Shown one piece after another: positions 10,476 to 64,000 of a stretch of DNA of 64,000 nt (its first letter is position 1; every line of letters begins with the position of its first letter). Below the pieces are notes generated by a model that was given only the letters and a program-made list of their open reading frames with translations, ran no database searches and had not been told where the DNA came from. Source of the stretch: Patescibacteria group bacterium (lineage in GTDB: Bacteria; Patescibacteriota; Doudnabacteria; UBA920); the NCBI GenBank assembly GCA_036726225.1, contig DAIMCS010000001.1, positions 188,885-252,884 of the forward strand. Direction: 5' to 3'. A program made the position numbers and the translations under genes.

Positions 10476-10509
10476 CCGCCGAGATCCGTTGATCTCGGCG
10501 GTTTTTTTA
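10476..10509 (+). terminator. Rho-independent terminator
   Basis: ccgccgagatccgttgatctcggcgg hairpin followed by T7. Confidence 0.8.
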
Positions 10510-11205
10510 AACTGATAAATTTTGGCAAAAACTTAAACGGTGAATAGCGGAAAGGCCGTTTTGCAAAATGAGTTTTCGATGCTGCTGTGTAGCATAACCT
10601 TTGTGCTGTTTGAGATTGTAGATTGGATAAGTTTCATGCAACTTTTGCATTAAACTATCTCTATAAACTTTTGCGATAATTGATGCAGAGGCGATTGAAA
10701 GAATTTTATTGTCACCGTCTACAACTGCTTCTTGTTCAATTGTTAAGCCGGGAATTTTAAACTTGCCGTCAACAACTACCATGACTTTGTCATTCCCGCG
10801 AAAGCGGGAATCTTTTTTAAGATCCCCGATCGGGTCGGGGATGACATAAAAAGATAGCAGATTCTCAACGGCTTTTCTCATTGCAAGCAAGCTTGCGTTG
10901 TGAATATTTATTCTGTCAATCTCTTCAGGTGAAACTTCCGCAATGCTCCAGGCAATTGCATTCTCTTTTATAATTGGCGCTAATTCTTCTCTTTTTTCAG
11001 CCGAAAGCAGTTTGCTGTCCTTAATTCCACAAGACTTTATAACTTTATAACTTTCTACTTTTAACTTGTCGTTTGCATCCGATATAGGCAAAATCACCGC
11101 GGATGCGACGACAGGCCCGGCCAAACATCCCCTGCCGACTTCGTCACAGCCGATGATGTGGGAAAAACCTTGTGATATTTTTTTGTTTTCGTATTTGTTG
11201 TTCAT
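10507..11205 (-). CDS. rnhB: Ribonuclease HII with in-frame palindromic-element insertion
   Basis: 232 aa; GCDEVGRGCLAGPVV and HKGYATQQH motifs; 10789-10845 palindromic element encodes ...DPIGDLKKDSRFRGND... Confidence 0.85.
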   Translation of the reverse strand: MNNKYENKKISQGFSHIIGCDEVGRGCLAGPVVASAVILPISDANDKLKVESYKVIKSCGIKDSKLLSAEKREELAPIIKENAIAWSIAEVSPEEIDRINIHNASLLAMRKAVENLLSFYVIPDPIGDLKKDSRFRGNDKVMVVVDGKFKIPGLTIEQEAVVDGDNKILSIASASIIAKVYRDSLMQKLHETYPIYNLKQHKGYATQQHRKLILQNGLSAIHRLSFCQNLSV

Positions 11206-21206: not shown

Positions 21207-21458
21207 ATGTTTTATTTCTACATTTTAAAATGCAAAGACGGCACACTGTACTGCGGCAGCGCAAAGGATCTTAACGAAAGATTAAAAAAGCACAATGACG
21301 GGATTGGTTCTAAATATGTCAGAAGCCGCGGGGGCGGGAGGATTGTTTACAGCGAGAGATTCAAATCTTGGGGCAAAACTTTAAGCCGTGAAGCGAAAGT
21401 AAAAAAATTATCTAGATTACAAAAAATTGCTTTAATAAAAACAAAACCCTCCGTTTAG
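21207..21458 (+). CDS. GIY-YIG nuclease family protein
   Basis: 83 aa; YFYILKCKDGTLYCGSAKDLNERLKKHN motif. Confidence 0.75.
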   Translation: MFYFYILKCKDGTLYCGSAKDLNERLKKHNDGIGSKYVRSRGGGRIVYSERFKSWGKTLSREAKVKKLSRLQKIALIKTKPSV

Positions 21459-24110: not shown

Positions 24111-24119
24111 AAATAAATA

Positions 24120-24200
24120 TACAAATTAACAAATGTACAAATGAAACCAATAACAACAAATTGGTGACTATCAGTTTCATTTGTACATCAGTATATTTGT
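24120..24200. repeat. Inverted-repeat element ACAAATGTACAAATGAAAC...GTTTCATTTGTACAT (copy 1 of 2)
   Basis: Second copy at 48590-48690 with same arms and ATAACAACAAAT core. Confidence 0.6.
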
Positions 24201-24351
24201 ATCATAATTACCATTTGAAAGCAACTGCCTTCGGGTGCTACAATGGTTTAGCTACACGCCGCCGTTAAATTATTTTTTCATCCAAAAAGATGCATAATTT
24301 TGGGGCAATTATACTTTTTATAGTAAAATTAAGACCAATTAATTTAATAAG

Positions 24352-26551: not shown

Positions 26552-28483
26552 TTGAACCTATCTTCTCTATCTTCACAGCTAAATATGTCCATCCAGGACC
26601 TTCGCCAAAAAGCCAAGGAGAAGGGTTATTTTATTTCGCCCAAAGCCAACAAAGTAGACAACTATGTAGCCAGAAAACTTATGGAGGCATTTGGCCAGCC
26701 GGTTAAAACGGCTGACGCGGGTCCAAAAGAAATTAAAAAAATAAAATTACCGGCGTTTATTAAAGTCCGAGATTTTGCCGATGTTTTAAAATTGCCGGTG
26801 ACTAAAGTCATTACTGTTCTAATCCAAAACGGCGTTATGGCTACAATTAACGAAGAGGTGGATTTTGACACTGCCTCCATTGTCGCCAGCGATTTGGGCT
26901 TTGAAGTTTCCAGCGAAGTAGATACAGCCATAGCCGAGTTTGGCATTGGCTTTTTGCAGGAAGTTTTAAAAGCAGAAAAAGAAGAAAACCTTAAACTCCG
27001 CCCGCCCATTGTGGCAATTATGGGACACGTTGACCACGGAAAAACCACGCTGCTTGATACCATCCGCAAAGCCAAAGTTGCCGAAGGCGAGTCCGGCGGC
27101 ATTACCCAGCACATTGGCGCTTACACTGTTAAGAAAAACGGCAAAATGGTCACCTTTTTAGACACGCCCGGCCACGAAGCTTTTACTGAAATGCGCGCAC
27201 GCGGGGCTAATGTTACAGATATGATAGTGCTTGTAGTTGCAGCTGACGACGGCATACGCCCGCAAACCGTGGAAGTTATAAACCGCGCAAAGTTTACCAA
27301 CACGCCAATGATTGTGGCAATAAACAAGATTGATAAACCCGAGGCTAATGTAATGAAAGTTAAACAGGAATTAGCCGGTCAAGGCGTGCTTACCGAAGAG
27401 TGGGGCGGCAAAACTGTTGCAGTAGAAATTTCCGCCAAACAAAACATTGGCATAGACAATTTGCTAGAAATGATCCTTTTAACTGCGGAAGTGGAAAATT
27501 TCCGCGCCAATCCACATGGCAAAACCGTGGGTACTATTATTGAAAGCAAAGTCACCCAGGGAAAAGGTGCAACAGCCACAGTTATTGTCCAAAATGGCAG
27601 TCTTAAAGTCGGCGACATTATTGCGGCCGGGGCGGTTTTCGGGCGCATCCGAAGTCTGGAAGATGAAACCGGAAAAAAATTAAAAGAAGCCATGCCTTCC
27701 ACGCCGGCGCAAATTTCAGGACTTTCCGAAGTCCCGCAAGCCGGAGATATTTTGCAAACCACAGCAGATTTAGATACTGCCAAACAAATTGCTATGAGCG
27801 TGCAAAAGAAAAACCGCAGCCATAGTCTGTCCAGCAAGCAGGCAATTGTAGGCGACATTAAAAATAAGACTTTAAACTTAATTGTAAAAACAGATGTTGC
27901 GGGATCGCTAGAAGCCATTAAACAGTCTATTGGCAAACTCAAAAACGACGAAGTTAAAATTTCTATCTTGGCTGAAGGCGTGGGTGAAATAAACGAGAGC
28001 GATGTGTTGCTTGCTTCCAGCTCGAATGCAACCATAATTGGTTTCCACACCAAAGTTAACCCCAAAGCCATAAATTTAGCCAAGCAAAAAAAGGTTGTGG
28101 TGGACTCTTACGAAGTTATTTACGAACTGGTGGAAGACATAACCTCGGCGGTTATAAAAATGTTCACGCCGGAACTGGAAAAAGTTGCCTTTGGCACAGC
28201 AAAAGTCCTGGCAATTTTTAGAACAGAAAAAGGTTTAATGATTGTCGGCGGAAGAGTGGAACAAGGGGAGTTAAAAAAGAACAGCAAGATTATGGTTTTC
28301 CGTGAGGGAGCCGAACTCGGCCGCGCGGAAATAACCGAGCTGCAGCAAAGCAAAGTCGCCGCCCGCTCCATTGGCAAAGGTGAAGAATTTGGGATCAAAC
28401 TCAAAACCCCTGTCAAAATTTTGGAAGGGGATGTCCTGGAAAGTTTTGAGGAAAAAATCAAACAGAAAACGTTAAGCACCTAA
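26552..28483 (+). CDS. infB: Translation initiation factor IF-2
   Basis: 643 aa; G1 [24 protein letters not shown]; true start may be internal MSIQDLRQ (26585). Confidence 0.9.
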
Positions 28484-28484
28484 A

Positions 28485-28511
28485 AAACCTCTCCATCTGG
28501 AGAGGTTTTTT
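28485..28511 (+). terminator. Rho-independent terminator after infB
   Basis: aaaacctctccatctggagaggtttttt. Confidence 0.8.
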
Positions 28512-28711
28512 AATCACCCTTGATAAAAACTAAAAATTTGGCTATACTGGTTAGCTGTTATAATTAAAAAGTAATTCATTACTTTTTATCCCCGCGGAGG
28601 CGGGGATCCAAATAATAGATTCCGGATAAATTTTCTAACCTCATTTTTAACCTCTCTGTCCCTTCGGGACATCTCTCCATGAATTGGAGAGAATAATAAA
28701 GATTAAAATCT

Positions 28712-29140
28712 ATGAAACCTGTAAAAAAAGACACCAATAGAATTGCCAAGGTTAACTCCCTTATCCAGCATGAATTAGGGCCGATTTTGCTTGAATTTTT
28801 AGGGGAATTTAATGCCTTAGTTACTATTACAAAAGTTGATACTTCCAAAGATATGAAATGGGCAAAAATATGGATTTCTATTGTACCTACAGGCCTGCAG
28901 CCTGAGCCACAAATTGAAAAGCCCTCGGGAAAAAAAGAAAAAGAATTTTCCGTTTTGGACAAAAAAATCCTGGATTTTTTAGCCAAAAATATTTACGACA
29001 TCCAGGGCGAAGTTAACAAACATTTCCACACCAAAATAATTCCGCGGATTAGTTTTCATTTAGACGTCTCACCGCGCTACGCTCAGCATATAGATGAATT
29101 GATTAAAACAATTCATGAAGAACCAAACACCAAATTATAA
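28712..29140 (+). CDS. rbfA: Ribosome-binding factor A
   Basis: 142 aa; RIAKVNSLIQHELGPILL...VTITKVDTSKDMKWAKIWISI; infB-rbfA synteny. Confidence 0.7.
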   Translation: MKPVKKDTNRIAKVNSLIQHELGPILLEFLGEFNALVTITKVDTSKDMKWAKIWISIVPTGLQPEPQIEKPSGKKEKEFSVLDKKILDFLAKNIYDIQGEVNKHFHTKIIPRISFHLDVSPRYAQHIDELIKTIHEEPNTKL

Positions 29141-29206
29141 GAACCAAACAAGGATTAAATTTAAAATTTTAATATTAAAATTTGTTTGGTACTTGGATCT
29201 TGAATT

Positions 29207-30211
29207 TTGAAATTTATTTTAAAGATGGAACAGAATTTTAAAAAAGCTAAATCACTGATTGACGACTCCTACCGAATTCTGCTGACCATGCACGAACGCA
29301 TGGACGGGGACGACGGAGGAGCGCTTTTAGCTATGGGCCACCATTTGGAAAAAATGGGCAAGGTCGTAACTTATGCCATCAAGAAAGGCGTTCCGCCAGC
29401 TTTGGCTTTTTTACCCGGCTCGGAGAAAATTGCGGATGACATAGACCACCACAACTTTGATTTGCTCATAACTTTCGGTTGCTCCACTCTCGACAGATGC
29501 GGCAGCGCTAAAATCTTAAACCTTTCCGCCCAAGGCGGATCCGCCTCCGGCGGAAAATCGGGAACTTCAATCATAAATATTGACCACCACCCTGACAACA
29601 GCCATTTTGGAAATGTAAACGTAGTAGACCACACTAAATCTTCGGTCGCTGAACTAATTTACGATTTTTTTATGTTCCATAACTGGCCAATAACTAAAGA
29701 AGTAGCCACCTGTTTACTCACCGGCATTATTACTGACACCGGCAGTTTTATGCATTCCAACACCCAAAGTTCCACACTTAAAACCGCCGCAGAGCTTATG
29801 AAAAAAGGCGCGCACGTAAGTAAAATTATAAAGCACACTTACAAAAGCAAATCGCTTTCGGTGCTTAAAGCCTGGGGCAGGGCTTTGGAAAATTCTTTTT
29901 ACGACGAAAAAAATAAAATTATTTATTCTGTAATGACGGAAACAGATTTACAGGAATTTGAAAAATTACCCCTGGCTGCTTTTGAAGGTTTTGCCGAAAC
30001 CTTAAACACCGTGCCCGAAGCTAAGCTTGCCATGTTTTTAAGGCAGGACGGACCAATTATAAAAGGCAGTTTGAGAAGTGATATTTTCAAAGATGTGGAC
30101 GTCAGTAAAATTGCCCACATTTTTGGCGGCGGGGGACATAAGCTGGCATCCGGATTTTCCGTGGCCGGGAAATTAATGAAGGACGAGAGTGGCAAATGGA
30201 GAGTCATTTAG
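29207..30211 (+). CDS. nrnA: DHH/DHHA1 phosphoesterase, NrnA-like
   Basis: 334 aa; HERMDGDDGGA, DHH (INIDHHPDN), GIITDTGSF. Confidence 0.75.
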   Translation: MKFILKMEQNFKKAKSLIDDSYRILLTMHERMDGDDGGALLAMGHHLEKMGKVVTYAIKKGVPPALAFLPGSEKIADDIDHHNFDLLITFGCSTLDRCGSAKILNLSAQGGSASGGKSGTSIINIDHHPDNSHFGNVNVVDHTKSSVAELIYDFFMFHNWPITKEVATCLLTGIITDTGSFMHSNTQSSTLKTAAELMKKGAHVSKIIKHTYKSKSLSVLKAWGRALENSFYDEKNKIIYSVMTETDLQEFEKLPLAAFEGFAETLNTVPEAKLAMFLRQDGPIIKGSLRSDIFKDVDVSKIAHIFGGGGHKLASGFSVAGKLMKDESGKWRVI

Positions 30212-30292
30212 CCACTCTTCTACTAAATACGAAAGTGCCTAAATACTAAATTAAAAGGCTTCCCTGCGGAGCCTTTTCGTATTTTAGATTAT

Positions 30293-30874
30293 TTAGTATT
30301 TAGTAGATTCATCTCTTGCCTTCTTAAGCGCTTCTGCTGACCAAACCAAACTTTTTAAAAGCCCGTCAACTTTCTTATTATAAGATTCGTCCAAAAGTTT
30401 ACCCTCGGCATCAAAAATATTTTCTATTTTTCCAAACATTACAGTTTCTCTTATTGCAAACATCTTAAAAGCTTCAATTACCGGGCGAATATTTTCTATT
30501 GCCCTGGCCCCTCCTAAAATTCCGGTTGAAACCCCGGCGAGCCCCACTACTTTATGCTCATATTCCGGAAACAGCCAGTCCAGCGCATTCTTTAACACCC
30601 CAGAATAACCGTGGTTGTATTCGGGAACCACTAAAACAAAAGCGTCCGCCGCATCGGCTATTTTACTCCACTTACGCACATTTTCGTTGGGATATTGTCT
30701 CTCATAATCCGAAGGCTCTTTTGGAGTATCTATAAATGGCAAGGGCAACTCTGTAAAATCAACCAATTGGGATGTATGCCCTAAGGCTTTAATTTTTTCA
30801 ACTAAAAACCTAGCCGGCTTTTCACTATGCCTGCCTTCGCGTACACTGCCTAAAATTACGGGGATGTTTAACAT
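30293..30874 (-). CDS. NADPH-dependent FMN reductase family flavoprotein
   Basis: 193 aa; flavodoxin-like, VPEYNHGYSGVLKNALDW. Confidence 0.7.
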   Translation of the reverse strand: MLNIPVILGSVREGRHSEKPARFLVEKIKALGHTSQLVDFTELPLPFIDTPKEPSDYERQYPNENVRKWSKIADAADAFVLVVPEYNHGYSGVLKNALDWLFPEYEHKVVGLAGVSTGILGGARAIENIRPVIEAFKMFAIRETVMFGKIENIFDAEGKLLDESYNKKVDGLLKSLVWSAEALKKARDESTKY

Positions 30875-30877
30875 TAA

Positions 30878-31390
30878 TTATTTTCCCAACAACTTCGTGG
30901 TTAATTTTTTTATCAAAACTTTTTCTGTCTCAGGTGTAGGATAGACCCTGCTTTGATCAATGGCGTTGGCAACGGGGAAATAAAATTCAAAAAGCTCCTT
31001 GGCGGAATCTTCTTCAAGTTTCCTGTGATCGACGTCAGCACTGAATAATACTTTTTTTACTTCTCCGTCTTGAGTTGTTGAGTACTTGGTTAGTCTTACC
31101 AAAACCGGAGAGCTGTCTATTTCAACCTCGCCGGCAATTTCTTCCATTTTTTGCCTATGGTCGCCGGGCAAACTCGAGTTGACTTTAACCTCGTCAACTA
31201 TCAGTTTTAGTTTCGACTTTTCCAACATCTTTTGCTGTTCGACGGATAAGGCATTGTACATTGCTTCCCTTACCTCCGAAGCTGCTTGTTGGTAAACAGG
31301 CATATTTGCTTCTGAAATATCACTAAGACCTTTTTCGTCCTTCGGCTCACCCGCGGCCCTAAAGCCTTGGTCTAACTTATTTTCTTGCAT
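30878..31390 (-). CDS. Hypothetical protein
   Basis: Start trimmed to MQENKLDQ because track ORF N-terminus overlaps tRNA-Leu(GAG). Confidence 0.4.
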   Translation of the reverse strand: MQENKLDQGFRAAGEPKDEKGLSDISEANMPVYQQAASEVREAMYNALSVEQQKMLEKSKLKLIVDEVKVNSSLPGDHRQKMEEIAGEVEIDSSPVLVRLTKYSTTQDGEVKKVLFSADVDHRKLEEDSAKELFEFYFPVANAIDQSRVYPTPETEKVLIKKLTTKLLGK

Positions 31391-31411
31391 ATAATAATTC
31401 TTTATTAATTT

Positions 31412-31498
31412 TGGTGCCCAGGACAGGACTCGAACCTGCACGGGATTGCTCCCGCTACCACCTCAAGGTAGTGCGTATACCAATTCCGCCACCTGGGC
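31412..31498 (-). tRNA. tRNA-Leu(GAG)
   Basis: rc GCCCAGGTGGCGGAATTGG...TTGAGGT loop...long variable arm...GGTTCGAGTCC...CCTGGGCACCA. Confidence 0.85.
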
Positions 31499-31537
31499 TT
31501 ATTTTTTAAATTTGTCTACCAATTATACCGAAAACGA

Positions 31538-31652
31538 TCTTTTTTTTCAATAGTCCTTGTCATTGCGAGTGCAGCCGAAGCAATCTAATCCAAGCAATAA
31601 AAGATTGCCACGTCGGCCGTCCGCCTTAGGCGGACTGGCCTCCTCGCAATGA
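31538..31652. repeat. Long hairpin element with GTCATTGCGAG...CTCGCAATGAC termini
   Basis: Approx. 100-nt imperfect palindrome downstream of pyrC. Confidence 0.55.
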
Positions 31653-31656
31653 CAAA

Positions 31657-32916
31657 TTAATGGCTATAAACCTTCCCGGCAATAATGGTGTATTTCACCC
31701 TTCCCGGAAAAGCCATGCCTTCAAATGGCGACCAAGCGCATTTGGTTTTTAATTTGTCGGCGGTGATCGTAATTGGTTCGTTGGGATTGATTACTGTAAG
31801 GGATCCAATATAACCTTTTTCAATTTTCCCAAAACCTTTACCGCATAGCGGCGGTAAAAATTCATTTACAAATTTTCCCGGATTATAAGCACAAACGCGC
31901 GCAATATCTTGAGGCATAAAAGCGTGCTCCTGCATAAGCCAAGTCGTAAAAGACCCGTAAGTGTCCAAATGCGGCACACCCGAAATGCCTTTTAGCTTTT
32001 CTTCGCGCGTATGTGGTGCGTGGTCAGTGGCTAAATAATCTATATCGCCACGCTTTAAAGCCGCTATCATTTCCAGACGATCCTCTTTGTTCCTAAGCGG
32101 GGGATTCATTTGCAGCAACTTATGATTCCCATCATTTAACATTGAGTCGTCAAAATACAAATGGTGGGGCGTTACTTCACAAGTAACTTTTACGCCTCTT
32201 TTTTTTGCTTCGACGATCTTAGGCAAACCTTCTTTGGTAGAATAGTGGCAAAGCTTGCCTACAAGATTATATTTTTCTATCAAATGCAGTGCAAAATCCG
32301 TAGCTGTAATTTCAGCGGCAGCCGGCCTTTGCTGTTCGTGCGTTGGCGCTGATTTATTAGCTTCCAAAATTTCCGGATCCTCACAATGGAAACTTACATT
32401 TTGACCGGCGTACTTAGAAATAACTTTTTCAAGTTCTGCGGATGACGAAAAAAATAAATCTCCCACAGACGGGCCCATATAAACTTTGTATGGCACTTTT
32501 TTCTTTAAAGGATTGGTATTAGGGCCAATTCCGGCATACAAAATTATGTGCACTTTAGATTCACTACCAAGCTTGGCCTTTTCTACGTATTTTTTATCAT
32601 CCGTCGGCGCAACCGGATTGTTAGGCATATCGGCAAAAAATGTAACACCGCCTGAAACTGCTGCCTCCGATGCGCTTTTAAAATCTTCTTTGTAATTTTG
32701 CGTGCCACTAGCATCTTGCCTGGCGTGCACGTGGATGTCGCCAAAACCCGGGAAAATAAGTTCATTATTTAAAACTAAATCCGCCGCGCCAGTAGCCGGA
32801 CCAACGCTCTCAATTAAACCAGTTTCGCTGTTAATTTCGACTCTCGCAACCGATTCAGAATCGTGGTTTATAATTTTTCCTTCGATTGAAAACATTTTCA
32901 TAAAATTATGTGTCAT
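31657..32916 (-). CDS. pyrC: Dihydroorotase-like amidohydrolase
   Basis: 419 aa; metal ligands HVHAR...ATDHAPH; first gene of pyr cluster. Confidence 0.7.
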   Translation of the reverse strand: MTHNFMKMFSIEGKIINHDSESVARVEINSETGLIESVGPATGAADLVLNNELIFPGFGDIHVHARQDASGTQNYKEDFKSASEAAVSGGVTFFADMPNNPVAPTDDKKYVEKAKLGSESKVHIILYAGIGPNTNPLKKKVPYKVYMGPSVGDLFFSSSAELEKVISKYAGQNVSFHCEDPEILEANKSAPTHEQQRPAAAEITATDFALHLIEKYNLVGKLCHYSTKEGLPKIVEAKKRGVKVTCEVTPHHLYFDDSMLNDGNHKLLQMNPPLRNKEDRLEMIAALKRGDIDYLATDHAPHTREEKLKGISGVPHLDTYGSFTTWLMQEHAFMPQDIARVCAYNPGKFVNEFLPPLCGKGFGKIEKGYIGSLTVINPNEPITITADKLKTKCAWSPFEGMAFPGRVKYTIIAGKVYSH

Positions 32917-32918
32917 TC

Positions 32919-33008
32919 CGCCTGCCTGCGGTAGGCAGGGAAAATTTACATTGTTATTAAATTTATCCGGAATCTATTTAATTGGATTCCCGCCTTCGCG
33001 GGAATGAC
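32919..33008. repeat. Composite palindromic element (GTCATTCC...GGGAATGAC family) in pyrC-pyrD spacer
   Basis: gtcattccgcctgcctgcggtaggcagg...aaatttatccggaatcta...ggattcccgccttcgcgggaatgac. Confidence 0.7.
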
Positions 33009-33014
33009 AAAAGA

Positions 33015-34094
33015 TTAAGCATCCTTTCCTACGGCTTCCGAAATATTTTTAAACCCGTCTCTTTTTAACAATTCAACCAAACCCTGATTAATTTTCTTAA
33101 CCAATCCTGGGCCTTCGTAAATAAGTCCAGTATAAAGCTGGACTAATGATGCCCCGGCTTTTATTTTTTCGTAAGCAGCCTCTGCACTATCAACACCGCC
33201 AAGACCAATTATACATGGTCGTTTAAGCTGTTTGTACGCGTGCCTAATTAAATTCGTAGATTTTTCCCTAATTGGCTGCCCCGAAAGCCCGCCTCTGCCT
33301 ATTTGCGCGACTACCGAAGCATTGGTATTCAAATTTTCTCTGGCTGTTGAAGTATTTGTTAAAATATAACCGTCGATTTTTTTACCCTCACAGATTTCCA
33401 AAATTTTATCTAATTTTTCCAAACTTAAATCGGGTGAAATTTTTACTAAAATTGGCTTCTGTAAATTCAAAGCCATCTTCGCTCTAATAATTTCGTCAAG
33501 CAGAACGTTTAAACTTTCCGGCTCTTCAAAAGTCTTACCTTCGGCAGTGTTGGGGCAACTGATGTTTATTACACTTATATCGGCATGCGGGGACAACTTC
33601 CTAAAACAGGTAACAAAATCTTCCACTGCTTTTTCTCCAACTATTCGAGGGTCGGGGGTTTTAACCAAGCTAACAAAAACAGGGCTTCCAAATTTACGGT
33701 CCTTCAATAAAGCAGCAATAAAATCAGCGCCCTTGTTATTTTGACCTAAGCGATTAATTATAGCCTTGTCTTTTGGCAGGCGGAATAAGCGGGGTCTTGG
33801 GTTGCCGGAATGGGGAAGCGCTGAAACATCGCCTACCTGCATATGGCTAAAACCTAAAGCCGGTAACAAATTTAAAAGTTTACCTGCCTTATCAAAACCG
33901 GCAGAAGTGCCTAAGGAATTTTTAAACTTAATGCCAAAAACTTCACTCTCAAGCGTTGGATGCTCAAAATTGAAAAATGACTTAATTAGATGCTGTGCTC
34001 CTATTGATGATAAAAAAACACCCAAAGCCAACATTTGGTTATGGGTCGTCTCGGCGTCAAACTTAAATAATAAAGGGCGGATTAATTTATACAT
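33015..34094 (-). CDS. pyrD: Dihydroorotate dehydrogenase (class 2-like)
   Basis: 359 aa; NxxG (LGQNNKG), PRLFRL, GGLSG, IGLGGV motifs. Confidence 0.85.
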   Translation of the reverse strand: MYKLIRPLLFKFDAETTHNQMLALGVFLSSIGAQHLIKSFFNFEHPTLESEVFGIKFKNSLGTSAGFDKAGKLLNLLPALGFSHMQVGDVSALPHSGNPRPRLFRLPKDKAIINRLGQNNKGADFIAALLKDRKFGSPVFVSLVKTPDPRIVGEKAVEDFVTCFRKLSPHADISVINISCPNTAEGKTFEEPESLNVLLDEIIRAKMALNLQKPILVKISPDLSLEKLDKILEICEGKKIDGYILTNTSTARENLNTNASVVAQIGRGGLSGQPIREKSTNLIRHAYKQLKRPCIIGLGGVDSAEAAYEKIKAGASLVQLYTGLIYEGPGLVKKINQGLVELLKRDGFKNISEAVGKDA

Positions 34095-34099
34095 AGTTT

Positions 34100-34165
34100 T
34101 TATCCATTCCCGCGAAAGCGGGAATCTATTAACTGGATTCCCGCCTACGCGGGGATGGAATGGCT
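34100..34165. repeat. Composite palindromic element in pyrD-pyrF spacer
   Basis: ccattcccgcgaaagcgggaat...ggattcccgcctacgcggggatgg. Confidence 0.7.
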
Positions 34166-34961
34166 AACGATATTTATTTATCTCATCTCTAAGCTTCTTA
34201 GCTTCTTCTTTAGGATTTTCTGCAAAAATAATTCCCCGGGAGGAGTTGATGATCATTCCCAATTTTTTACTATTAAGTCCGGCCTTAACCGCAGCTTCAA
34301 CATCGCCGCCTTGCACGCCAAGTCCTGGCACTAAAAATGTCATATCGCCGACAAGCGATCTAATTATTTGCATCTCCTCTGGGTAAGTTGCACCCACCAC
34401 CAACATACAGTTGTTATTTTTATTCCATTCTTTGCTGACTCTTTCCGCAACAACCTGCCAAACTTTTTTACCGCCGGATTCTAAATCTTGCAATTCGCCT
34501 GCACCGGGATTAGACGTCCGGCAAAGAATAATCGAGCCTTTATCAGCCCGGTCTAAAAAGGGCTTTAAAGCTTCCTTACCCAGGTACGGATGCAAGGTTA
34601 CGGCGTCAAACCCGAAATAATCAAAAATTGAGAACACATAACCGTTATTCGTATTACCAATGTCCGCGCGCTTGGCATCACAAATCGTAAAAATATCCGG
34701 CTGCTTCTCCCGCAAATAATCCATAGTTAACTTTAACTCCGAAAGTCCCTTATCCCCGCGGGCTTCGTAAAAAGCTGAATTTGGTTTAAAAGCCGCTGCG
34801 AATTCCGCAGTCTCATCAATTATCCATTTGTTAAATTCAAACTGCGGGAATTCCATTGCCTTAAATTTCTCCGGCAATTTTGAAAAATCGGGATCAAGCC
34901 CCACGCAAACCAAAGAGTTTATTTTTTCCGCGCGCTGGTTGTATTTGTCAATTGGGTTCAT
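34164..34961 (-). CDS. pyrF: Orotidine 5'-phosphate decarboxylase (type 2)
   Basis: 265 aa; VGLDP...K...D motif. Confidence 0.8.
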   Translation of the reverse strand: MNPIDKYNQRAEKINSLVCVGLDPDFSKLPEKFKAMEFPQFEFNKWIIDETAEFAAAFKPNSAFYEARGDKGLSELKLTMDYLREKQPDIFTICDAKRADIGNTNNGYVFSIFDYFGFDAVTLHPYLGKEALKPFLDRADKGSIILCRTSNPGAGELQDLESGGKKVWQVVAERVSKEWNKNNNCMLVVGATYPEEMQIIRSLVGDMTFLVPGLGVQGGDVEAAVKAGLNSKKLGMIINSSRGIIFAENPKEEAKKLRDEINKYR

Positions 34962-35599
34962 ATAAGGCCCTTTGCTTGTAAATATTTCTTACCGTGGCCA
35001 ACCTTAACATTAATTGGTATCCCCGAAGCGCACAAAGGACAATCTTTCTCTTCATAAGTTTCAGCCGGAATCTCACACAAAGCGTTAAAATGAAAGCCTA
35101 AGGTTTGGGAGGTTATCTCCTTAGGCACACGGTTAACTATAACGCTAAGCCCCTGGATATGTCCGCCAAATTCTTTTACTGCGTCTATCATTTTGTGTAT
35201 AGACAGTCCTGTGGCAATTGTGTCCTCAATAATTAGGACCTTTTTCCCTTTAATCAACTCATCATAGCCGCGCTTGAAAACCAAAGGGCCTTCGTCGGTC
35301 TTGTCCGCATAAACACTCAATACTTCTTTACCCTGCATTTTAGAAAGATGTTGTGCGGTTAAATGGCCTAAAATTACAGCACCAACTACCGGAGCGGCGA
35401 CAACCTCAACATCCAAATCTTTATTTGTCTGGGCCAAAAGTTTAGCTATTTCTTCTGTTTCGCTCGGATGGGTGAGCAGCCTGTCTTTATTTACATAAAT
35501 AGACATATGCCTGCCCGATGTCCCGACAAAATGGCTATCCGTAAGCACCGCCTCGGTTTTTTTTAAAATTTCTAAAATATTGCTCATATTTATTGTCAT
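34958..35599 (-). CDS. pyrE: Orotate phosphoribosyltransferase
   Basis: 213 aa; PRPP-binding VLIIEDTIATG; overlaps pyrF by 4 nt. Confidence 0.8.
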   Translation of the reverse strand: MTINMSNILEILKKTEAVLTDSHFVGTSGRHMSIYVNKDRLLTHPSETEEIAKLLAQTNKDLDVEVVAAPVVGAVILGHLTAQHLSKMQGKEVLSVYADKTDEGPLVFKRGYDELIKGKKVLIIEDTIATGLSIHKMIDAVKEFGGHIQGLSVIVNRVPKEITSQTLGFHFNALCEIPAETYEEKDCPLCASGIPINVKVGHGKKYLQAKGLI

Positions 35600-35681
35600 T
35601 CCGGAAAATTTTTGTTGACATAAAATTTATCCGGAATCTATTTTCTGGATCCCGGATCAAGTCCGGGATGACACAAATTGA
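35585..35681. repeat. Composite palindromic element in pyrE-prs spacer
   Basis: gtcattccggaaaa...taaaatttatccggaatcta...ggatcccggatcaagtccgggatgac. Confidence 0.7.
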
Positions 35682-36566
35682 TTAAAATAATTTAAGGTTA
35701 CTATCCACAGCGTCCAATAATTTTTGCTTTATGGAAACTTTGGCGTGTTCGTTTAATATGGTATCTGTGGAATAAATACAGTCCGTGAATTTTTTTATTT
35801 TGTCTATGCAATTGTACAAAAAGAGGCCGTGGGTGGCAGCGCAGCAAACTTTTTTCGCGCCGGCTTCGGTTAATTTTTCCAAAGCGCGAAGCATAGTGCC
35901 CCCCGTGCTAATCATATCGTCTAAAATTAAAACATTTTTGTCTTTTACGTCGAACTCACCTTCCATTTCACCTATTTCGCGGTAATGGATTTTGTCCCCT
36001 TCGTATTCCTTGCGCACTTTTTTGTAAGACTGCCCGCCGTGTTCTGCAACTAAATAATTCGCGCCCATATCCGGAGAAATTACTTCAAAACTTTCACCTC
36101 CAAAGCTGTCATTTTTGGCGTAAGCTGCCAGCTCCCTGCCCAAAGAAATATTTTCTATTTGTAGTTCCCCAAATTTGGCCGGGCCTTCCTTGTTTAAAAA
36201 ATGGCAGTCAAAAGTAATTAACTTGTCGCAGCCGGCACGCGAGAGTAAATTACAAACTACGAATGCGCTGGCCACTTCGCCATTTAACTTTTTTTTATCC
36301 TGCCTTGAATAAGGCAGGTAGGGAGAGACCACGGTAATTTTTTGCGCGCCAATTTCCCGCAAAGAATCCAAAATTAAAAGCAGAGTCACCAACGAGGTGT
36401 TCTGCTTTGGATATAATCTATGAAAAACAATTACTTCACGACCCTGGCATTGCTCAATAGAGTTGATTTTAACGTGGCTGTCACCATCCGGGAATTTGCC
36501 AATTTCAATATTTGGTTCAAAAATATCGGCAAAATTGGGGGAAACAAGATGCACGGATTGAGGCAT
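35682..36566 (-). CDS. prs: Ribose-phosphate pyrophosphokinase
   Basis: PRPP motif LILDDMISTGGT; start placed at internal MPQSVHL because upstream 14 codons are ATTGACAA-type repeat sequence. Confidence 0.8.
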   Translation of the reverse strand: MPQSVHLVSPNFADIFEPNIEIGKFPDGDSHVKINSIEQCQGREVIVFHRLYPKQNTSLVTLLLILDSLREIGAQKITVVSPYLPYSRQDKKKLNGEVASAFVVCNLLSRAGCDKLITFDCHFLNKEGPAKFGELQIENISLGRELAAYAKNDSFGGESFEVISPDMGANYLVAEHGGQSYKKVRKEYEGDKIHYREIGEMEGEFDVKDKNVLILDDMISTGGTMLRALEKLTEAGAKKVCCAATHGLFLYNCIDKIKKFTDCIYSTDTILNEHAKVSIKQKLLDAVDSNLKLF

Positions 36567-36574
36567 AGAGTAAT

Positions 36575-36705
36575 TGACAAGAATGACATGATTGAACAAG
36601 ATTGACAAGATTAAGTAAAATCGTGTTCAATCATTCCTGCCTGCCGGCAGGCAGGTAAATCTTTTAAATCCTGTCAATCAATTCTGGCTGTATCATAACA
36701 AAAAT
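36575..36705. repeat. TTGACAAG/CTTGTCAA repeat cluster plus cctgcctgccggcaggcagg palindrome upstream of prs
   Basis: Related arrangement at 48900-48990 upstream of gyrA. Confidence 0.55.
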
Positions 36706-36714
36706 TCAAGGATT

Positions 36715-36805
36715 ATGCTACTATTTACTCTACGGATTACGGATACTCGCGGAAATACGGAAGTTGAAATTCAGTAAATCCGTATAAGGTTCCGTACTCC
36801 GTAGA
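36715..36805. repeat. TACGGA/TCCGTA repeat cluster (copy 2)
   Basis: ctacggattacggatactcgcggaaatacggaag...aatccgtataaggttccgtactccgtag. Confidence 0.6.
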
Positions 36806-36808
36806 ATC

Positions 36809-37123
36809 ATGAAAAAATTCCAAAGAAAAGTTGAAAACTTCATCTGCAGGCATTGCAAAACCAGCGTAAAAGGGGATGGCTACACCAACCATTGCCCCAA
36901 ATGCTTATGGAGCAGGCATGTAGATGTAAACCCGGGCGACCGACAGGAAAAATGCGGGGGGATGATGGAACCCGTGGGCCTGGAAATCAAAAAAACTTCT
37001 TACATTTTAACGCATAAATGCGAAAAGTGCGGAGCCGAAAGAAGGAACCATACAGTGGAAAGTGATAATATAGATGCACTTACAAAGCTGTCTGAAACTC
37101 TTGCAAAAAAGGCACTATTTTGA
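36809..37123 (+). CDS. RNHCP domain zinc-ribbon protein
   Basis: 104 aa; CRHC...GYTNHCPKCLWSRHVD..PGDR...CGG.M.P...HKCEKCG pattern. Confidence 0.6.
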   Translation: MKKFQRKVENFICRHCKTSVKGDGYTNHCPKCLWSRHVDVNPGDRQEKCGGMMEPVGLEIKKTSYILTHKCEKCGAERRNHTVESDNIDALTKLSETLAKKALF

Positions 37124-37504: not shown

Positions 37505-37685
37505 ATCCCAAAAATGCCTCCGGCATTTTCGGGAACCCTCAATGAAATCCAAACCGCAAAAACGAGTAGCGCAGCTCCGACGTTTCAGTCGGAGCGAGCA
37601 CGCGTTTTTGTGGAAGAGGAGTTCGTGATGGAGAGCGAGAATCCCGATATTAATCGGGATGAAAGCTCGGAAACACGAACGACTA
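37505..37685 (+). ncRNA. Structured tRNA-leader element (copy B) upstream of tRNA-Phe
   Basis: cccaaaaat hairpin, internal caaaaacg-hairpin-cgtttttg module, GGAGAGCGAGAATCCCGAT-ATTA-ATCGGGATGAAAGCTCGGA core, outer stem gttcgtg/cacgaac. Confidence 0.55.
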
Positions 37686-41204: not shown

Positions 41205-41396
41205 CATCCCAAAAACGCGTGCTCTCCCGACAAAAGTCGGGATGCGCTCCACGTTTTTGGGAGGTCTATATAACAAATCCTCAGCTCAAAAAAGGGCTCT
41301 CAAAAATGCAATGCATTTTTGGGAAAGAGGAGTTCGTGACGCAGAGCGTAAATTCCGACGTTAGTCGGAATGCAAGCTCACAGGCACGAACGACGA
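41205..41396 (+). ncRNA. Structured tRNA-leader element (copy E, two cccaaaaa/tttttggg modules) upstream of tRNA-Leu(TAA)
   Basis: ...GCAGAGCGTAAATTCCGAC-GTTA-GTCGGAATGCAAGCTCACAGG core with compensatory changes in the hairpin relative to copies A-C; outer stem gttcgtg/cacgaac. Confidence 0.55.
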
Positions 41397-41846: not shown

Positions 41847-41867
41847 ATGTCCTAAAGCTTTACAAAA

Positions 41868-42035
41868 ACCATTTGACAAGCTAAAAGCTTTGTCGTAAAT
41901 TATGTGTACTATTAATTTTTGAAGGAGTTGGATAGAAAAAAAGACCCACACGACATCTACAACCAAAAACAAGCAAGTCAACTCAATGGCTCAGTTTGGC
42001 GTAAACAAATTCTTTAAGGGTTTGTTTTTTTATTT
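41868..42035 (+). promoter_or_regulatory. Conserved cis-element copy 1: promoter (TTGACA-17-TAAATT), conserved leader, intrinsic terminator upstream of GNAT gene
   Basis: TTGACA 41873-78, TAAATT 41896-901, aaggagTTG 41922-30, terminator aaacaaattctttaagggtttgtttttttat about 42003-42031; paralog at 42666-42832. Confidence 0.6.
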
Positions 42036-42574: not shown

Positions 42575-42665
42575 CCACCAAGGAAAAGAGTGTTTGGACA
42601 TCCACAAACACTCTTTCCTCCCATCCTGCTAAAAAACCTTCTCTGCTAATAAAATTTAAGGAAAA

Positions 42666-42832
42666 AATATTTGACAAACAATTAGCTTTACTGTAAATTA
42701 TGTTTAATATTAATTTTTTAAGGAGTTGGAAAGAATAGAACACTCGTCCCTTTTTAACCAAAACCGACAAAGTCAAGTCAATGGCTTAGTTCAACGTTAA
42801 CAAATTCCTAATGAGTTTGTTTTTTTATTATA
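42666..42832 (+). promoter_or_regulatory. Conserved cis-element copy 2 immediately upstream of hss (terminator ends about 25 nt before hss start codon)
   Basis: TTGACA 42671-76, TAAATT 42694-99, aaggagTTG 42720-28, short ORF 42726-42800, terminator aacaaattcctaatgagtttgtttttttat. Confidence 0.6.
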
Positions 42833-48584: not shown

Positions 48585-48589
48585 ACCAT

Positions 48590-48690
48590 ACAAATATACA
48601 AATGGACAAATGATGCTGATAACAACAAATCTAAATCCATAAATCCGTAGTTATTTGTTTCATTTGTGCATTTGTTAATTTGTATTTATG
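48590..48690. repeat. Inverted-repeat element ACAAATGGACAAATGA...TTCATTTGTGCATTTG (copy 2)
   Basis: Paralog of 24120-24200. Confidence 0.6.
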
Positions 48691-53744: not shown

Positions 53745-54500
53745 ATGTTATACATCGTAGCCACCCCAATTGGAAACCTGGGAGACATTACTTTGCGGGC
53801 CATTGAAACTTTAAAGGCCTGCGCTTTTGTTATTGCTGAAAATCCGGGATACAGCAGAAGGTTGTTACAACATATAGACAGCCTTTCTTCCAATACCATT
53901 CCCGCGAAAGCGGGAATCCAGATGTCGATGTCTGGATCCCCGATCAGGTCGGGGATGGAAAACAAATTAGCCAATAAAGAGATAGTCCAATTTGCAGAAC
54001 ACAACGAACAGCAGGTTGTTAAAGATTTAACACGCCGATTGGGAAAAGCAGACGGGGCTTTAATTACCGACGCCGGCACTCCGGGAATTTCCGACCCGGG
54101 CTTTAGGCTAGTACGTGAATGCGTTAAAGAAAATATCCAGGTTATTCCCATCCCGGGAGCCAATGCTGCCACGGTCGCGCTTTCTGCCTCCGGACTTCCG
54201 ACTGACAAATTTTTATTTTTAGGCTTTTTGCAAAAAACCGCGGCCAAGACAGTGGAAGCGTTACAATCTGCAGCCGATGCAGAGGCAACTGCAATATTTT
54301 ACGAATCACCCGAAAGAATTTTTAAAACTTTGGGCTATATAAATAATGCTTTCCCTACGTCGCAGGTGGTAATTGGGCGCGAGCTTACTAAAATCCACGA
54401 AGAATTTATTCGCGGGACTCCGGACTCGGTGATGGCAGATTTAAAAAAACGAGCGTCTATAAAAGGCGAGCTCACTGTTCTGGTCAGTTTCAAATCCTAA
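53745..54500 (+). CDS. rsmI: 16S rRNA (cytidine1402-2'-O)-methyltransferase RsmI with in-frame palindromic-element insertion
   Basis: MLYIVATPIGNLGDITLRAIETL; insertion 53895-53957 encodes ...TIPAKAGIQMSMSGSPIRSGMEN... Confidence 0.8.
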   Translation: MLYIVATPIGNLGDITLRAIETLKACAFVIAENPGYSRRLLQHIDSLSSNTIPAKAGIQMSMSGSPIRSGMENKLANKEIVQFAEHNEQQVVKDLTRRLGKADGALITDAGTPGISDPGFRLVRECVKENIQVIPIPGANAATVALSASGLPTDKFLFLGFLQKTAAKTVEALQSAADAEATAIFYESPERIFKTLGYINNAFPTSQVVIGRELTKIHEEFIRGTPDSVMADLKKRASIKGELTVLVSFKS

Positions 54501-55970: not shown

Positions 55971-57143
55971 CTATTTGATTTTTAAAAATCTTTTACCCAA
56001 ACGAAACAAATCGCCGGAAGCAATTTTTACACGGGCATTCTCATCGGTAATTTTTTGCTGATTATGGTTGACCGCGCCTTCTTTAATTTTCCGCCTGGCT
56101 TCCGATTTAGACGAAGCCAGCTTGCCTTCAACTAAAATATCCAGCAAAATATATTCGCCGTCTTTCTTGCTTAAAACCACATCCGGCTCTATTTCTGAAG
56201 ATGAATTTTTCCCAAATTTTTTCCCAAAATTTTCTTTAGCTTGGGCTGCTATTTTGCCGCCATAATACAGCTCTGTAATTTTTTGGGCCAAAACTAATTT
56301 TTGGTCGCGTGGGTTTGCGTTCGAACGCAATATGCCGTCTATTTCCCCGAGTGGCACGCGGGTAGCCAAAATAAAATACTTTTTTATTAAGTCATCGCTA
56401 ATGGACATAACCTTGCCAAACATATCGTTGGGCTCATCTGTCACATTAATAACATTGCCCCAGGAAGAGGACATTTTTCGGCCGTCCGTGCCTTCTAAAA
56501 TCCCCATCATCAAAATATCTTGGGGTTCTTGGTTGTACAGGGGTTGTATGCGCCTGCCGGCCAAAAGATTAAACCTTTGGTCCGTACCGCCTAATTCTAA
56601 ATCAGCCTTAACAGCAACCGAATCGTAACCTTGAAGTAAAGGATACATAGCTTCGTGAAGCGATACCCTTTGCCCGGCCTTCATACGCCTGGCAATAATT
56701 TCACGTGATTCCATTTCATGCAGCCCAAACAGGTTAGCGAGCTTGGCGAGTTCAAAAAATCCTAACTTATTCAGCCATTTGGAATTATAATGAACCTCGG
56801 TCTTTTTCTTGTCCAAAATTTTGTAGGCCTGCTCAAAATATGTCTTCATATTTGCTTTAACTTCTGCTTCTGTAAGCATAGGACGCTCTGAATCTTTGTC
56901 TGAAGTATCACCCACAAGGCCTGTGGAGTCACCAACAATAAACACCGCCTGGTGACCGGCGTCCTGAAAAGCGCGCAATTTTAAAAGCAAAACCGCCCGG
57001 CCAATGTGGATGTTTTGGGAGGTGGGGTCTATGCCCAGTTTTACTCTAAGTTTCTTCTTTGAAACCAGCTGCCGCTCTAAATGATGGTAATCTATAACCT
57101 CTTCCACCCCGCGGCCCAAAAGTTCTGCAATAGGATTATTCAT
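55971..57143 (-). CDS. tyrS: Tyrosine--tRNA ligase
   Basis: 390 aa; class I; KMSSS motif; C-terminal S4 domain. Confidence 0.85.
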   Translation of the reverse strand: MNNPIAELLGRGVEEVIDYHHLERQLVSKKKLRVKLGIDPTSQNIHIGRAVLLLKLRAFQDAGHQAVFIVGDSTGLVGDTSDKDSERPMLTEAEVKANMKTYFEQAYKILDKKKTEVHYNSKWLNKLGFFELAKLANLFGLHEMESREIIARRMKAGQRVSLHEAMYPLLQGYDSVAVKADLELGGTDQRFNLLAGRRIQPLYNQEPQDILMMGILEGTDGRKMSSSWGNVINVTDEPNDMFGKVMSISDDLIKKYFILATRVPLGEIDGILRSNANPRDQKLVLAQKITELYYGGKIAAQAKENFGKKFGKNSSSEIEPDVVLSKKDGEYILLDILVEGKLASSKSEARRKIKEGAVNHNQQKITDENARVKIASGDLFRLGKRFLKIK

Positions 57144-62903: not shown

Positions 62904-62910
62904 AAAGGGA

Positions 62911-63183
62911 TTAGGATTTAGGGACTAAATCTACGCTTGGCTCTGCCCAGGGATGACATTTGCTTAGTCTTTTTAGGCTTAAATACAGTCCTTTAATTAA
63001 ACCAAATTTTATTACAGCTTCTTTAGAATACTGGCTACAGGAAGGGTAATGGCGGCAGTAACCATAAGGAAAACGTGCCCGAAGCCAGCTGTGGTCAGGC
63101 GAAAGCAAAAATTGATAAACATTAATTAACATTACAATAATGTTTTTAGGGAGGTTAATTAATTGTTTAAAAAACTTTTTCAT
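62911..63183 (-). CDS. yidD: Membrane protein insertion efficiency factor YidD
   Basis: FPYGYCRHYPSCSQYSKEAVIKFG motif. Confidence 0.8.
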   Translation of the reverse strand: MKKFFKQLINLPKNIIVMLINVYQFLLSPDHSWLRARFPYGYCRHYPSCSQYSKEAVIKFGLIKGLYLSLKRLSKCHPWAEPSVDLVPKS

Positions 63184-63186
63184 AAA

Positions 63187-63513: not shown

Positions 63514-63517
63514 AAAT

Positions 63518-63999: not shown

Positions 64000-64000
64000 G

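Follow-up and report, generated by a model that had tools for sequence, protein, structure and literature searches.

The 64,000-nt stretch of DNA analysed here (the window), from a contig of a Patescibacteria group bacterium, carries on its minus strand a pyrimidine gene cluster in the order prs, pyrE, pyrF, pyrD and a pyrC-like gene, and the short spacers of this cluster hold palindromic elements made of paired hairpins. The initial annotation had placed one family of composite palindromic elements in every spacer of the cluster; since pyrF and pyrE overlap by 4 nt, the spacers that it listed are all the non-zero spacers. Our comparison of these spacers showed that the family is present in three of them (pyrD/pyrC, pyrF/pyrD and prs/pyrE; Table 1), whereas the fourth, at 36575-36705, contains only loosely related sequence. 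The observation of repeats in the pyr spacers is real, with this and the following corrections. The region was 100% identical among independent assemblies from several samples, including the JGI metagenome contig Ga0137465_1000001, and its sequence is therefore not an assembly artefact. The host is a soil bacterium with a small genome belonging to the candidate phyla radiation (CPR, Patescibacteria), and the homologues of its PyrD and RNase HII at 50-60% identity included several from Candidatus Doudnabacteria, Kerfeldbacteria and the "Patescibacteria group".

The clear elements consist of two hairpin modules in inverted orientation separated by a linker of 8-16 nt, and their general form is (T)GTCAT-YCC-stem-loop-stem-GGR-ATC, linker, GAT-YCC-stem-loop-stem-GGR-ATGAC(A). 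The module is a dRS3-type palindrome, AT[T/C]CC-stem-loop-stem-GG[A/G]AT, which in the intact copies is oriented by a GTC before it and a C after it. We found 13 modules in seven elements, located at 10789, 28584 (a half element), 32912, 34104, 35595, 53896 and 60893; the head of the module was GTCAT in eight cases, CCAT in four and TTAT in one, and the ATC on the 3' side was kept in all 11 modules that were aligned. These seven elements (eight when the one at 31559 is included) were the only clear ones in the ~82 kb examined, and no convincing further element was seen in the ~9 kb past each end of the window.

The recurrence of the individual parts reported earlier was borne out by counts against expectation. 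The internal palindrome ATTCCCGC-N4-GCGGGAAT had seven matches at up to two mismatches (0.02 expected), the terminus GTCATTCC had six copies (1.14 expected), and the 18-mer core AAATTTATCCGGAATCTA occurred exactly three times, at 28616-28633 on the minus strand and at 32959-32976 and 35623-35640 on the plus strand (0.21 in shuffles), its earlier coordinates being off by 1-4 nt. The elements recur elsewhere in the window, outside the pyr spacers, as well, so that neither absence of the family elsewhere nor lack of recurrence of the core was observed. The description of the termini as shared by all the spacers needed narrowing: GTCATTCC...GG(A/G)ATGAC bounds only the elements at 32912-33008 and 35595-35672, whereas the one at 34104-34158 is bounded by CCATTCC...GGGGATGG. 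Pairs of the generic form GTCAT...ATGAC were not enriched in the window (seven, versus 10.2 in shuffles), so that an element cannot be recognised from its 5-mer termini without the hairpins.

The hairpins are well supported. The RNA-fold z-scores of the four spacers against shuffles were -4.9, -6.6, -3.9 and -5.6. When the 11 short-loop modules were aligned, 97.7% of the stem cells were paired, with compensatory double changes at three of the eight stem positions. Because none of 500 shuffles reached the observed pairing and covariation, the hairpin is under constraint, or else the copies come from several masters that preserve it.

The doublet of the pyrF/pyrD spacer occupies 55 of its 69 nt and is formed by dRS3-type hairpins at 34106-34125 and 34137-34156 joined by the linker CTATTAACTGG, with CCAT and ATGG at its ends instead of GTCAT and ATGAC. 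The left module of the prs/pyrE doublet has a long loop, in which ATTCCGGA pairs with TCCGGAAT across 24 nt and the AT-rich ends of the loop lengthen the stem. The left module of the pyrD/pyrC doublet is this same long-loop module, but GTCATTCCG is followed in it by a nested hairpin of 19 nt. The partial element upstream of rbfA lacks the 5' half of the long-loop stem and is 94% complementary to 35622-35653 over 32 nt. The hairpin in the prs leader is a doubtful relative: its 5' flank is degenerate, it has no inverted partner and it resembles the hairpin nested at 32921-32939. The copy of AGAATGAC found at 36581-36588 in the same spacer is in the wrong order for a doublet, and the remainder of 36575-36705 is made of unrelated inverted repeats, probably the prs promoter and leader. 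The earlier list of elements had overlooked the one that follows pyrC at 31559-31653, as well as the copies inside open reading frames (ORFs) described below. The element after pyrC belongs to a wider GTCAT...ATGAC class, of which it represents a second, different subfamily; its terminal repeat TGTCATTGCGAG is present in two inverted copies in the window, versus 0.17 expected.

Table 1. Elements, modules and genes of the pyr cluster and of the other sites in the window where the repeat family, or a possible relative, was located.
Feature	Coordinates	Strand	Description
Doublet, pyrD/pyrC spacer	32912-33008		inverted modules; RNA fold -36.2 kcal/mol, z -4.9
Left module of 32912 doublet, long-loop	~32911-32978	+	GTCATTCCG, nested hairpin CCTGCCTGCGGTAGGCAGG (32921-32939), AT-rich extension, 18-nt core 32959-32976
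Right module of 32912 doublet, TGTCATTCCCGCGAAGGCGGGAATCCAA	32982-33009	-	SRM pattern with 1 mismatch
Doublet, pyrF/pyrD spacer	34104-34158		inverted modules; RNA fold -38.1 kcal/mol, z -6.6
Doublet, prs/pyrE spacer	35595-35672		inverted modules; RNA fold -30.2 kcal/mol, z -3.9
Left module of 35595 doublet, long-loop	35595-35640		GTC-ATTCCGGA, 24-nt loop, TCCGGAAT-CTA; 18-nt core 35623-35640
Right module of 35595 doublet, TGTCATCCCGGACTTGATCCGGGATCCAG	35645-35673	-	exact match to the published SRM pattern
prs-leader hairpin (doubtful relative)	36630-36661	+	ATCATTCC, hairpin CCTGCCTGCCGGCAGGCAGG (36636-36655), TAAATC
Partial element between infB terminator and rbfA	28584-28633		hairpin ATCCCCGCGGAGGCGGGGAT (28588-28607, 5' flank TTTAT) and core on minus strand (28616-28633)
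Element between pyrC stop and tRNA-Leu, 95 nt	31559-31653		TGTCATTGCGAG terminal inverted repeats and inner hairpin GTCCGCCTTAGGCGGAC
In-frame doublet, RNase HII gene (10507-11205, minus)	10789-10845		57 nt (19 codons); encodes VIPDPIGDLKKDSRFRGND
In-frame doublet, rsmI (53745-54500, plus)	53896-53958		63 nt (21 codons); CCAT/ATGG termini; encodes IPAKAGIQMSMSGSPIRSGM
Doublet, Wzy_C (O-antigen-ligase-like) membrane-protein ORF (59840-61072, plus)	60893-60952		60 nt (20 codons); encodes VIPDSDPGSRILDSRFRGND
pyrC-like amidohydrolase gene	31657-32916	-	Pfam
pyrD	33015-34094	-	Pfam
pyrF	34164-34961	-	Pfam
pyrE	34958-35599	-	Pfam
prs	35682-36608	-	Pfam

We then compared the modules with a repeat family described by Chenal et al. 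in 2025 (Nat Commun, PMC11893778). The Neisseria NTS of that study, CGTCATTCCCGCGMAVGCGGGAATCYRG, is an oriented extension of dRS3, in which the palindrome ATTCCC-N8-GGGAAT is flanked by GTC on its 5' side and C on its 3' side, and it was generalised there to Ssn-related motifs (SRM). The nuclease SsnA, a single-domain GIY-YIG protein of ~95 amino acids (cd10448), binds the hairpin on single-stranded DNA only and nicks it a few nucleotides upstream; the GTC is important for cleavage and the C that follows the palindrome for binding, and the identity of the loop is dispensable. This biochemistry was shown for four Ssn/SRM pairs, all from bacteria outside the CPR, and an Ssn homologue was present in 81% of the genomes with more than 200 SRMs, Rickettsia being among the SRM-rich genera (PMC11893778). 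The NTS-ssnA-NTS arrangement was likened by the authors to an insertion sequence (PMC11893778).

The window was searched with the published SRM sequence, HGTCWYN(0-2)YYVSBRHN(0-5)WNVSBRGN(0-2)RNCYNB (PMC11893778), with dinucleotide shuffles (n=100) as the null. The search gave three exact matches (10788-10815 and 60892-60921 on the plus strand and 35645-35673 on the minus strand), versus a mean of 0.13 in the shuffles, and two matches with one mismatch (10818-10846 and 32982-33009). The remaining eight modules failed the pattern because of long loops or CCAT and TTAT heads, and the prs-leader hairpin was unmatched at up to two mismatches. These results place the elements of the pyr spacers in the NTS/SRM family.

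With each GTDB species represented by a single genome (596 Gb), the exact 20-mer ATTCCCGCGAAAGCGGGAAT was found at 120 loci or more in the same frame, when the chance expectation is ~1 by our own estimate. The matches listed came from Proteobacteria, Chloroflexota, Bacteroidota, Planctomycetota, Acidobacteriota, Nitrospirota, Omnitrophota, several CPR groups and others. Among the occurrences listed, 123 of 146 had GTC upstream and C downstream, and 56 of 146 were followed by an inverted hairpin and then GAC within 130 nt, the doublet architecture seen in the window. Clustering of the ORFs near ATTCCCGCGAAAGCGGGAAT at the 120 loci listed gave a single informative family, of GIY-YIG proteins of 92-98 amino acids; the other clusters were of very unequal ORF lengths. 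At four loci (L067, L068, L116 and L117, from Cloacimonadota, Omnitrophota, Anaerolineales and a gammaproteobacterium), the GIY-YIG gene was bracketed by hairpins located 0-20 nt from its start and stop.

A profile made from these four Ssn-type proteins identified a homologue in Candidatus Wildermuthbacteria (L141), which brought the loci with an ssn gene between two hairpins to five in all, one of them from a CPR genome. The L141 locus (5864-5930, 5958-6303 and 6405-6476) contains the hairpin-flanked ssn-type gene together with two neighbouring mini doublets, one on each side. The gene is preceded by TGTCATTCCCAATTTAATTGGGAATCCAGAACC-ATG and ends within CTGGATTCCCGCTTTCGCGGGAATGAC, its TGA stop (6298-6300) being supplied by GGAATGAC. 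The mini doublets have a junction composed of CCAGAACC, ACG and GCACTGGAT in that order, and read ...GGGAATCCAGAACC-ACG/AAG-GCACTGGAT(C/T)CCCGC.... From their sequence they can be read as the hairpin-ssn-hairpin unit minus its ORF, and they are the best available evidence for an internal deletion of the kind known from miniature inverted-repeat transposable elements (MITEs).

The only GIY-YIG gene of the window (21207-21458) was tried as a partner for the elements and rejected as a likely one. It is of the UPF0213/YhbQ type (PDB 1zg2, E = 4e-15, compared with 0.007 for the hairpin-flanked Ssn-type protein against the same chain), and its neighbours are a tRNA and a terminator instead of hairpins. 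A related CPR contig also carries a UPF0213/YhbQ-type GIY-YIG gene (L133, 96-380), followed by a tRNA-like sequence recognised by eye and with no flanking hairpin repeats. NCBIfam offers no model able to tell Ssn-type proteins from those of the UPF0213 type.

Comparison with relatives showed that the elements are lineage-specific. On relatives' contigs whose PyrD is 64-70% identical, the order RNHCP-prs-pyrE-pyrF-pyrD ... FMN reductase-DHH-rbfA-infB is kept, and the syntenic clusters contain none of these modules. In two relatives the prs-pyrE gap is reduced to 1-4 nt, and the hairpins found in the pyrF/pyrD spacers of relatives are unrelated to those of the window. Because the modules are absent from the syntenic clusters, they are lineage-specific arrivals and not ancestral regulatory sequence. 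The pyrC-like gene itself is missing after pyrD in three relatives (L007, L010 and L011). In these three, pyrD is followed by a tRNA-like sequence recognised by eye, and L011 also has a LAGLIDADG-like ORF. A metagenome scan for close relatives of PyrD returned two fragments only, of 42% identity.

Three of the elements lie inside ORFs, and their lengths (57, 63 and 60 nt) are all multiples of three. In the RNase HII gene, the left module of the doublet fits the SRM pattern exactly and the right one with one mismatch; homologues in the PDB lack the element-encoded residues at exactly this position and align on both sides of it. Solved structures of RsmI align around a gap of ~28 residues that contains the peptide encoded by the element. 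The third copy, whose left module is also an exact SRM match, is located 3' of the Wzy_C Pfam domain and is read in frame according to the predicted ORF.

The RNase HII site was then compared among homologues. The loop between AVENL and VDGKF was longer than 14 residues in 97 of the 120 best homologues (P0121-P0240), which are mostly from CPR bacteria, with a range of 9-89, and the other 23 had nothing beyond the baseline. The inserts differ widely in sequence and length; many start with VIP or CHCE and end with RND, RDD or GND, which correspond to the translation of GTCATTCC or GTCATTGCGAG at the start and of GGAATGAC or GGGATGAC at the end. At the DNA level, the inserts of two related contigs (L133, 5541-5654, and L134, 10358-10471) are each 114 nt long, are bounded by GTCAT...ATGAC and occupy the same protein site. 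The L133 insert is a plain inverted repeat without self-folding modules, and the GTCAT...ATGAC class of CPR bacteria is therefore broader than SRM proper. The AVENL-VDGKF loop is an apparent hotspot of recurrent in-frame insertion.

The explanation that we consider best overall, and probable, is that the elements of the pyr spacers are SRM doublets, that these are internal-deletion derivatives of a hairpin-ssn-hairpin unit, and that they settled where they were tolerated, with an incidental effect on the pyr genes. Under this explanation the motif would fold on single-stranded DNA, where the ~95-residue Ssn would bind it and nick a few nucleotides upstream, as in the published system. The hairpin-ssn-hairpin arrangement would be an insertion-sequence-like unit and the doublets without a gene its internal-deletion derivatives, comparable to MITEs and REPINs. 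Ssn would mobilise or maintain the doublets in this organism, and these would have settled in tolerant sites: the short spacers of prs-pyrE-pyrF-pyrD-pyrC, the infB/rbfA spacer and, in frame, surface loops of three proteins. Family membership by sequence, stem covariation, lineage-specific presence, in-frame insertion and the hairpin-ssn-hairpin loci of other genomes carry this explanation.

The transcribed elements would form very stable RNA hairpins, which could retard degradation in the 3' to 5' direction or give rise to processing sites. From the folding energies, a hindrance of exonucleases by hairpins of -30 to -38 kcal/mol is possible as a side effect, and the effect on pyr expression, like any effect on the mRNA, would most likely be incidental. 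No T-run follows the hairpins on the transcribed strand. A reading of the elements as terminators was rejected: the sole terminator-like site in the spacers, at 36636-36655, is on the strand opposite prs. In Rfam, only tRNAs reached the gathering thresholds in the window. Sub-threshold matches to FtrB (Francisella sRNA B, RF02748) were seen at 28565-28648, 32941-33030 and 34077-34181, with 27-33 bits against a gathering threshold of 66, and in a permissive scan of 28400-37000 nothing but FtrB matched the elements, a hint that the FtrB transcript may originate from a related repeat.

Several observations weigh against this explanation. No Ssn-type gene is present in the 64-kb window or in ~18 kb of flanks, and there is no known demonstration that Ssn transposes; the source paper notes only an architecture like that of insertion sequences (PMC11893778). 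The strict Neisseria NTS CGTCATTCCCGCGMAVGCGGGAATCYRG has no exact match in the window and the best module is two positions off; the elements are therefore of the SRM class and not NTS sensu stricto. In four modules CCAT and in one TTAT replace GTCAT, that is, the nucleotides reported to be critical for cleavage, and the fourth spacer and the element at 31559-31653 do not fit the SRM pattern. Finally, three elements in 2.8 kb are a modest local excess (rough Poisson P ~0.002 before correction for scanning), which could reflect something beyond passive accumulation. Short operon spacers may be among the few neutral sites that a compact genome offers, or the genes may be bracketed as in Neisseria.

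The bracketing of genes is the basis of the first alternative, which is compatible with the explanation by settled doublets and would add a selected function to it. The doublets would be domesticated barriers to recombination or transformation, at which Ssn would cut single-stranded DNA, incoming or exposed, and so shape gene exchange. Every pyr gene or gene pair is bracketed, by the elements at 31559, 32912, 34104 and 35595, and the absence of pyrC at the syntenic site in three relatives indicates that gene content changed at an element boundary; in Neisseria, NTS together with SsnA lowers transformation (PMC11893778). However, one difference in gene content is anecdotal, and the lack of an ssn gene in the sequence examined also counts against such barriers. 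We consider this selected function, proposed by analogy with Neisseria, unlikely.

A second alternative is that the elements are cis-regulatory RNAs specific to the operon, such as attenuators of the PyrR type or processing signals, that tune prs, pyrE/F, pyrD and pyrC. The strong structure in all the non-zero spacers and the local clustering of three elements in 2.8 kb are in its favour, but the same modules also turn up within the genes for RNase HII, RsmI and the Wzy_C protein and ahead of rbfA, and the orthologous spacers of relatives have no element or do not exist at all. Copies in coding sequences and absence from the spacers of relatives argue against an operon-specific function. In addition, neither PyrR nor any other cis-regulatory family of Rfam was matched in the window, FtrB being the only sub-threshold candidate, and Ssn does not act on RNA (PMC11893778). 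We regard such regulation as very unlikely.

The initial annotation had also suggested that the 18-nt core could be a protein-binding site of its own, or, as considered here, a promoter, common to the pyr spacers and rbfA. Its three exact copies were not expected by chance (0.21), and in one place (35615-35644) it is located between TTGACA and TATTTT with a spacing of 18 nt. However, these promoter-like hexamers accompany one copy only, on the plus strand alone and antisense to prs, and the similarity of the three copies runs past the core into the next hairpin. The core turned out to be the 3' half of the stem of the long-loop module plus the ATC flank of the family (ATTCCGGA...TCCGGAATC), its TCCGGAAT pairing with ATTCCGGA at 35598-35605. 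In a related genome a homologous long-loop module, GTCATTCCGGAATTTTTT...AAAAAATATCCGGAATCTA, lies between genes, and the RNase HII gene of that genome contains a variant of this module. The left module of an intergenic element on the L134 contig, GTCATTCCGGAATTTTTTAGGGCAGTAAAAAATATCCGGAATCTA, is the counterpart of the long-loop module of the window, and the core is therefore part of a mobile module. An independent function of the core is highly improbable.

The resemblance to repetitive extragenic palindromes (REP) and bacterial interspersed mosaic elements (BIME) drawn earlier is right for architecture and behaviour (short, dispersed, inverted pairs of imperfect palindromes between operon genes, with strong predicted RNA hairpins), and the analogy with REP is made by Chenal et al. 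themselves (PMC11893778), but it names the wrong family: that these are classical REP/BIME, propagated by a REP-associated tyrosine transposase (RAYT) and serving to stabilise mRNA or to terminate transcription, is extremely improbable, given the precise match to the NTS/SRM frame, the GTCAT, CCAT and TTAT heads (8, 4 and 1) with none of the GTAG type, the lack of T-runs, the GIY-YIG gene and not a Y1 transposase between hairpins in other genomes, and the absence of RAYT (Y1 transposase, PF01797) or other transposase domains from the window ORFs examined. PF01797 was absent from the precomputed gene tables as well.

For the pyr cluster the outcome is a modest one: its palindromes belong to a widespread repeat family published in 2025 and are no pyrimidine regulatory device. 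CPR hosts, in-frame insertion and doublets derived by deletion are not mentioned by Chenal et al. (PMC11893778). Literature searches with exact DNA strings and translated peptides turned up a single paper, which contains the DNA string but deals with another subject, a pilus factor of Neisseria gonorrhoeae. The repeat family is already known, and what is new is the CPR host, the in-frame copies and the evidence for deletion derivatives. Beyond the published work, CPR bacteria, whose genomes are very small, contain both the family and its nuclease, and doublets are tolerated in frame in essential genes, one loop of RNase HII having been hit repeatedly across CPR lineages. The L141 doublets, which can be read as exact internal deletions, support the idea of a unit that is mobile now or was formerly, and these results together offer concrete substrates for the question of whether Ssn nucleases mobilise their motifs.

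A broader proposition, which we put forward tentatively as a possibility, is that SRM doublets are active, MITE-like internal-deletion derivatives of hairpin-ssn-hairpin that in CPR bacteria insert again and again, in frame, into the same tolerant loops of essential proteins, the RNase HII loop with inserts in 97 of 120 homologues being the clearest case. If this were true, Ssn would be the nuclease of an unrecognised GIY-YIG-based system of single-stranded DNA transposition, and this system would be a general source of evolution of protein inserts in reduced genomes, possibly by the same phenomenon as the palindromic elements of Rickettsia.

The elements also call for caution in annotation, since their termini supply spurious in-frame ATGs and extra peptides and lead to miscalled gene starts. 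The repeat terminus GGAATGAC provides the in-frame ATG of the longest pyrC (32914-32916) and pyrE (35597-35599) ORFs, and the true starts of these genes are likely to be 15 and 12 nt, respectively, downstream of the repeat-derived ATGs.

Other features of the window were observed during the analysis. The genes yidC, yidD, rnpA, rpmH, dnaA and dnaN straddle its right end (~62200-64000 and beyond), and for this reason the replication origin is probably just outside it, with the pyr cluster at ~28-32 kb from dnaA. Repeated segments of 45-115 nt (37506-37620/37839-37953, 37602-37693/41313-41404 and 14992-15035/37938-37981) are located near tRNAs (Phe 37686, Gly 38017, Leu 41397 and Pro 15074), mostly just upstream of them, with dRS3-like hairpins at 37641-37660 and 41352-41371; they may represent leaders or promoters common to the tRNA genes, or a further repeat family. 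An AT-rich family, ATACAAAT...ACAAATG..., has inverted and direct intergenic copies at 24112-24209 and 48588-48685. About 170 nt containing TTGACA are duplicated at 41864-42034 and 42662-42829 (~80% identity, spacing of 795 nt) and may be paralogous promoter or leader regions. The tRNA-His (anticodon ATG) called by ARAGORN at 56337-56424 lies within tyrS, has no Rfam call and is probably a false positive.

Among known systems, the elements are closest in form to NTS/SRM, with which they share the dRS3-type hairpin oriented by GTC 5' and C 3', exact or near matches to the SRM pattern and multiple copies, often in inverted pairs. The 20-mer ATTCCCGCGAAAGCGGGAAT was found in taxa named in the SRM paper (Povalibacter, Devosia and a Rickettsia endosymbiont, L098; Sphingomonas through loci of Sphingomonas and Sphingopyxis), and the hairpin-ssn-hairpin arrangement was recovered independently, including in a CPR genome. 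The elements differ from NTS/SRM by their long-loop variants (loops of 24 and 47 nt, one with a nested hairpin) and by some CCAT termini. The share of copies inside genes also differs: it is three of eight elements here, when the doubtful prs-leader hairpin is excluded, versus 2% of NTS in N. meningitidis (PMC11893778).

The dRS3 repeats of Neisseria and the arrays of neisserial intergenic mosaic elements (NIME) were described by Bentley et al. in 2007 (PMC1797815). The palindrome ATTCCC-N8-GGGAAT of dRS3 is present here at 10792, 32986, 34106 and 53898, and GC-rich hairpins alternate with AT-rich linkers in both systems. However, the elements of the window are isolated doublets with linkers of 8-16 nt in a host other than Neisseria, whereas NIME are long arrays with RS elements of 50-150 bp, and no recombinase of the Piv/IS110 type or filamentous prophage is found near the elements here.

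REP, BIME and REPIN are inverted pairs of hairpins, mostly intergenic and without target-site duplication, whose partner RAYT is an HUH Y1 transposase encoded by a single-copy gene flanked by the repeats. SRM doublets resemble them as inverted hairpin pairs that look like a replicative unit, in being mostly intergenic without target-site duplication and in having a single-copy, repeat-flanked nuclease as partner. They differ in that this partner is a GIY-YIG and not an HUH Y1 protein, that the head is GTCAT and not GTAG, and that the same motif recurs from phylum to phylum, REPs being specific to their lineages. The Rickettsia palindromic elements (RPE), reportedly described by Ogata and co-workers in 2000, are said to be 100-150 bp long and were defined in Rickettsia, which sets them apart from the doublets described here. 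Like these doublets, they are palindromic repeats inserted in frame in conserved proteins and tolerated as surface peptides, and in both cases the same protein site has been hit repeatedly in related lineages.

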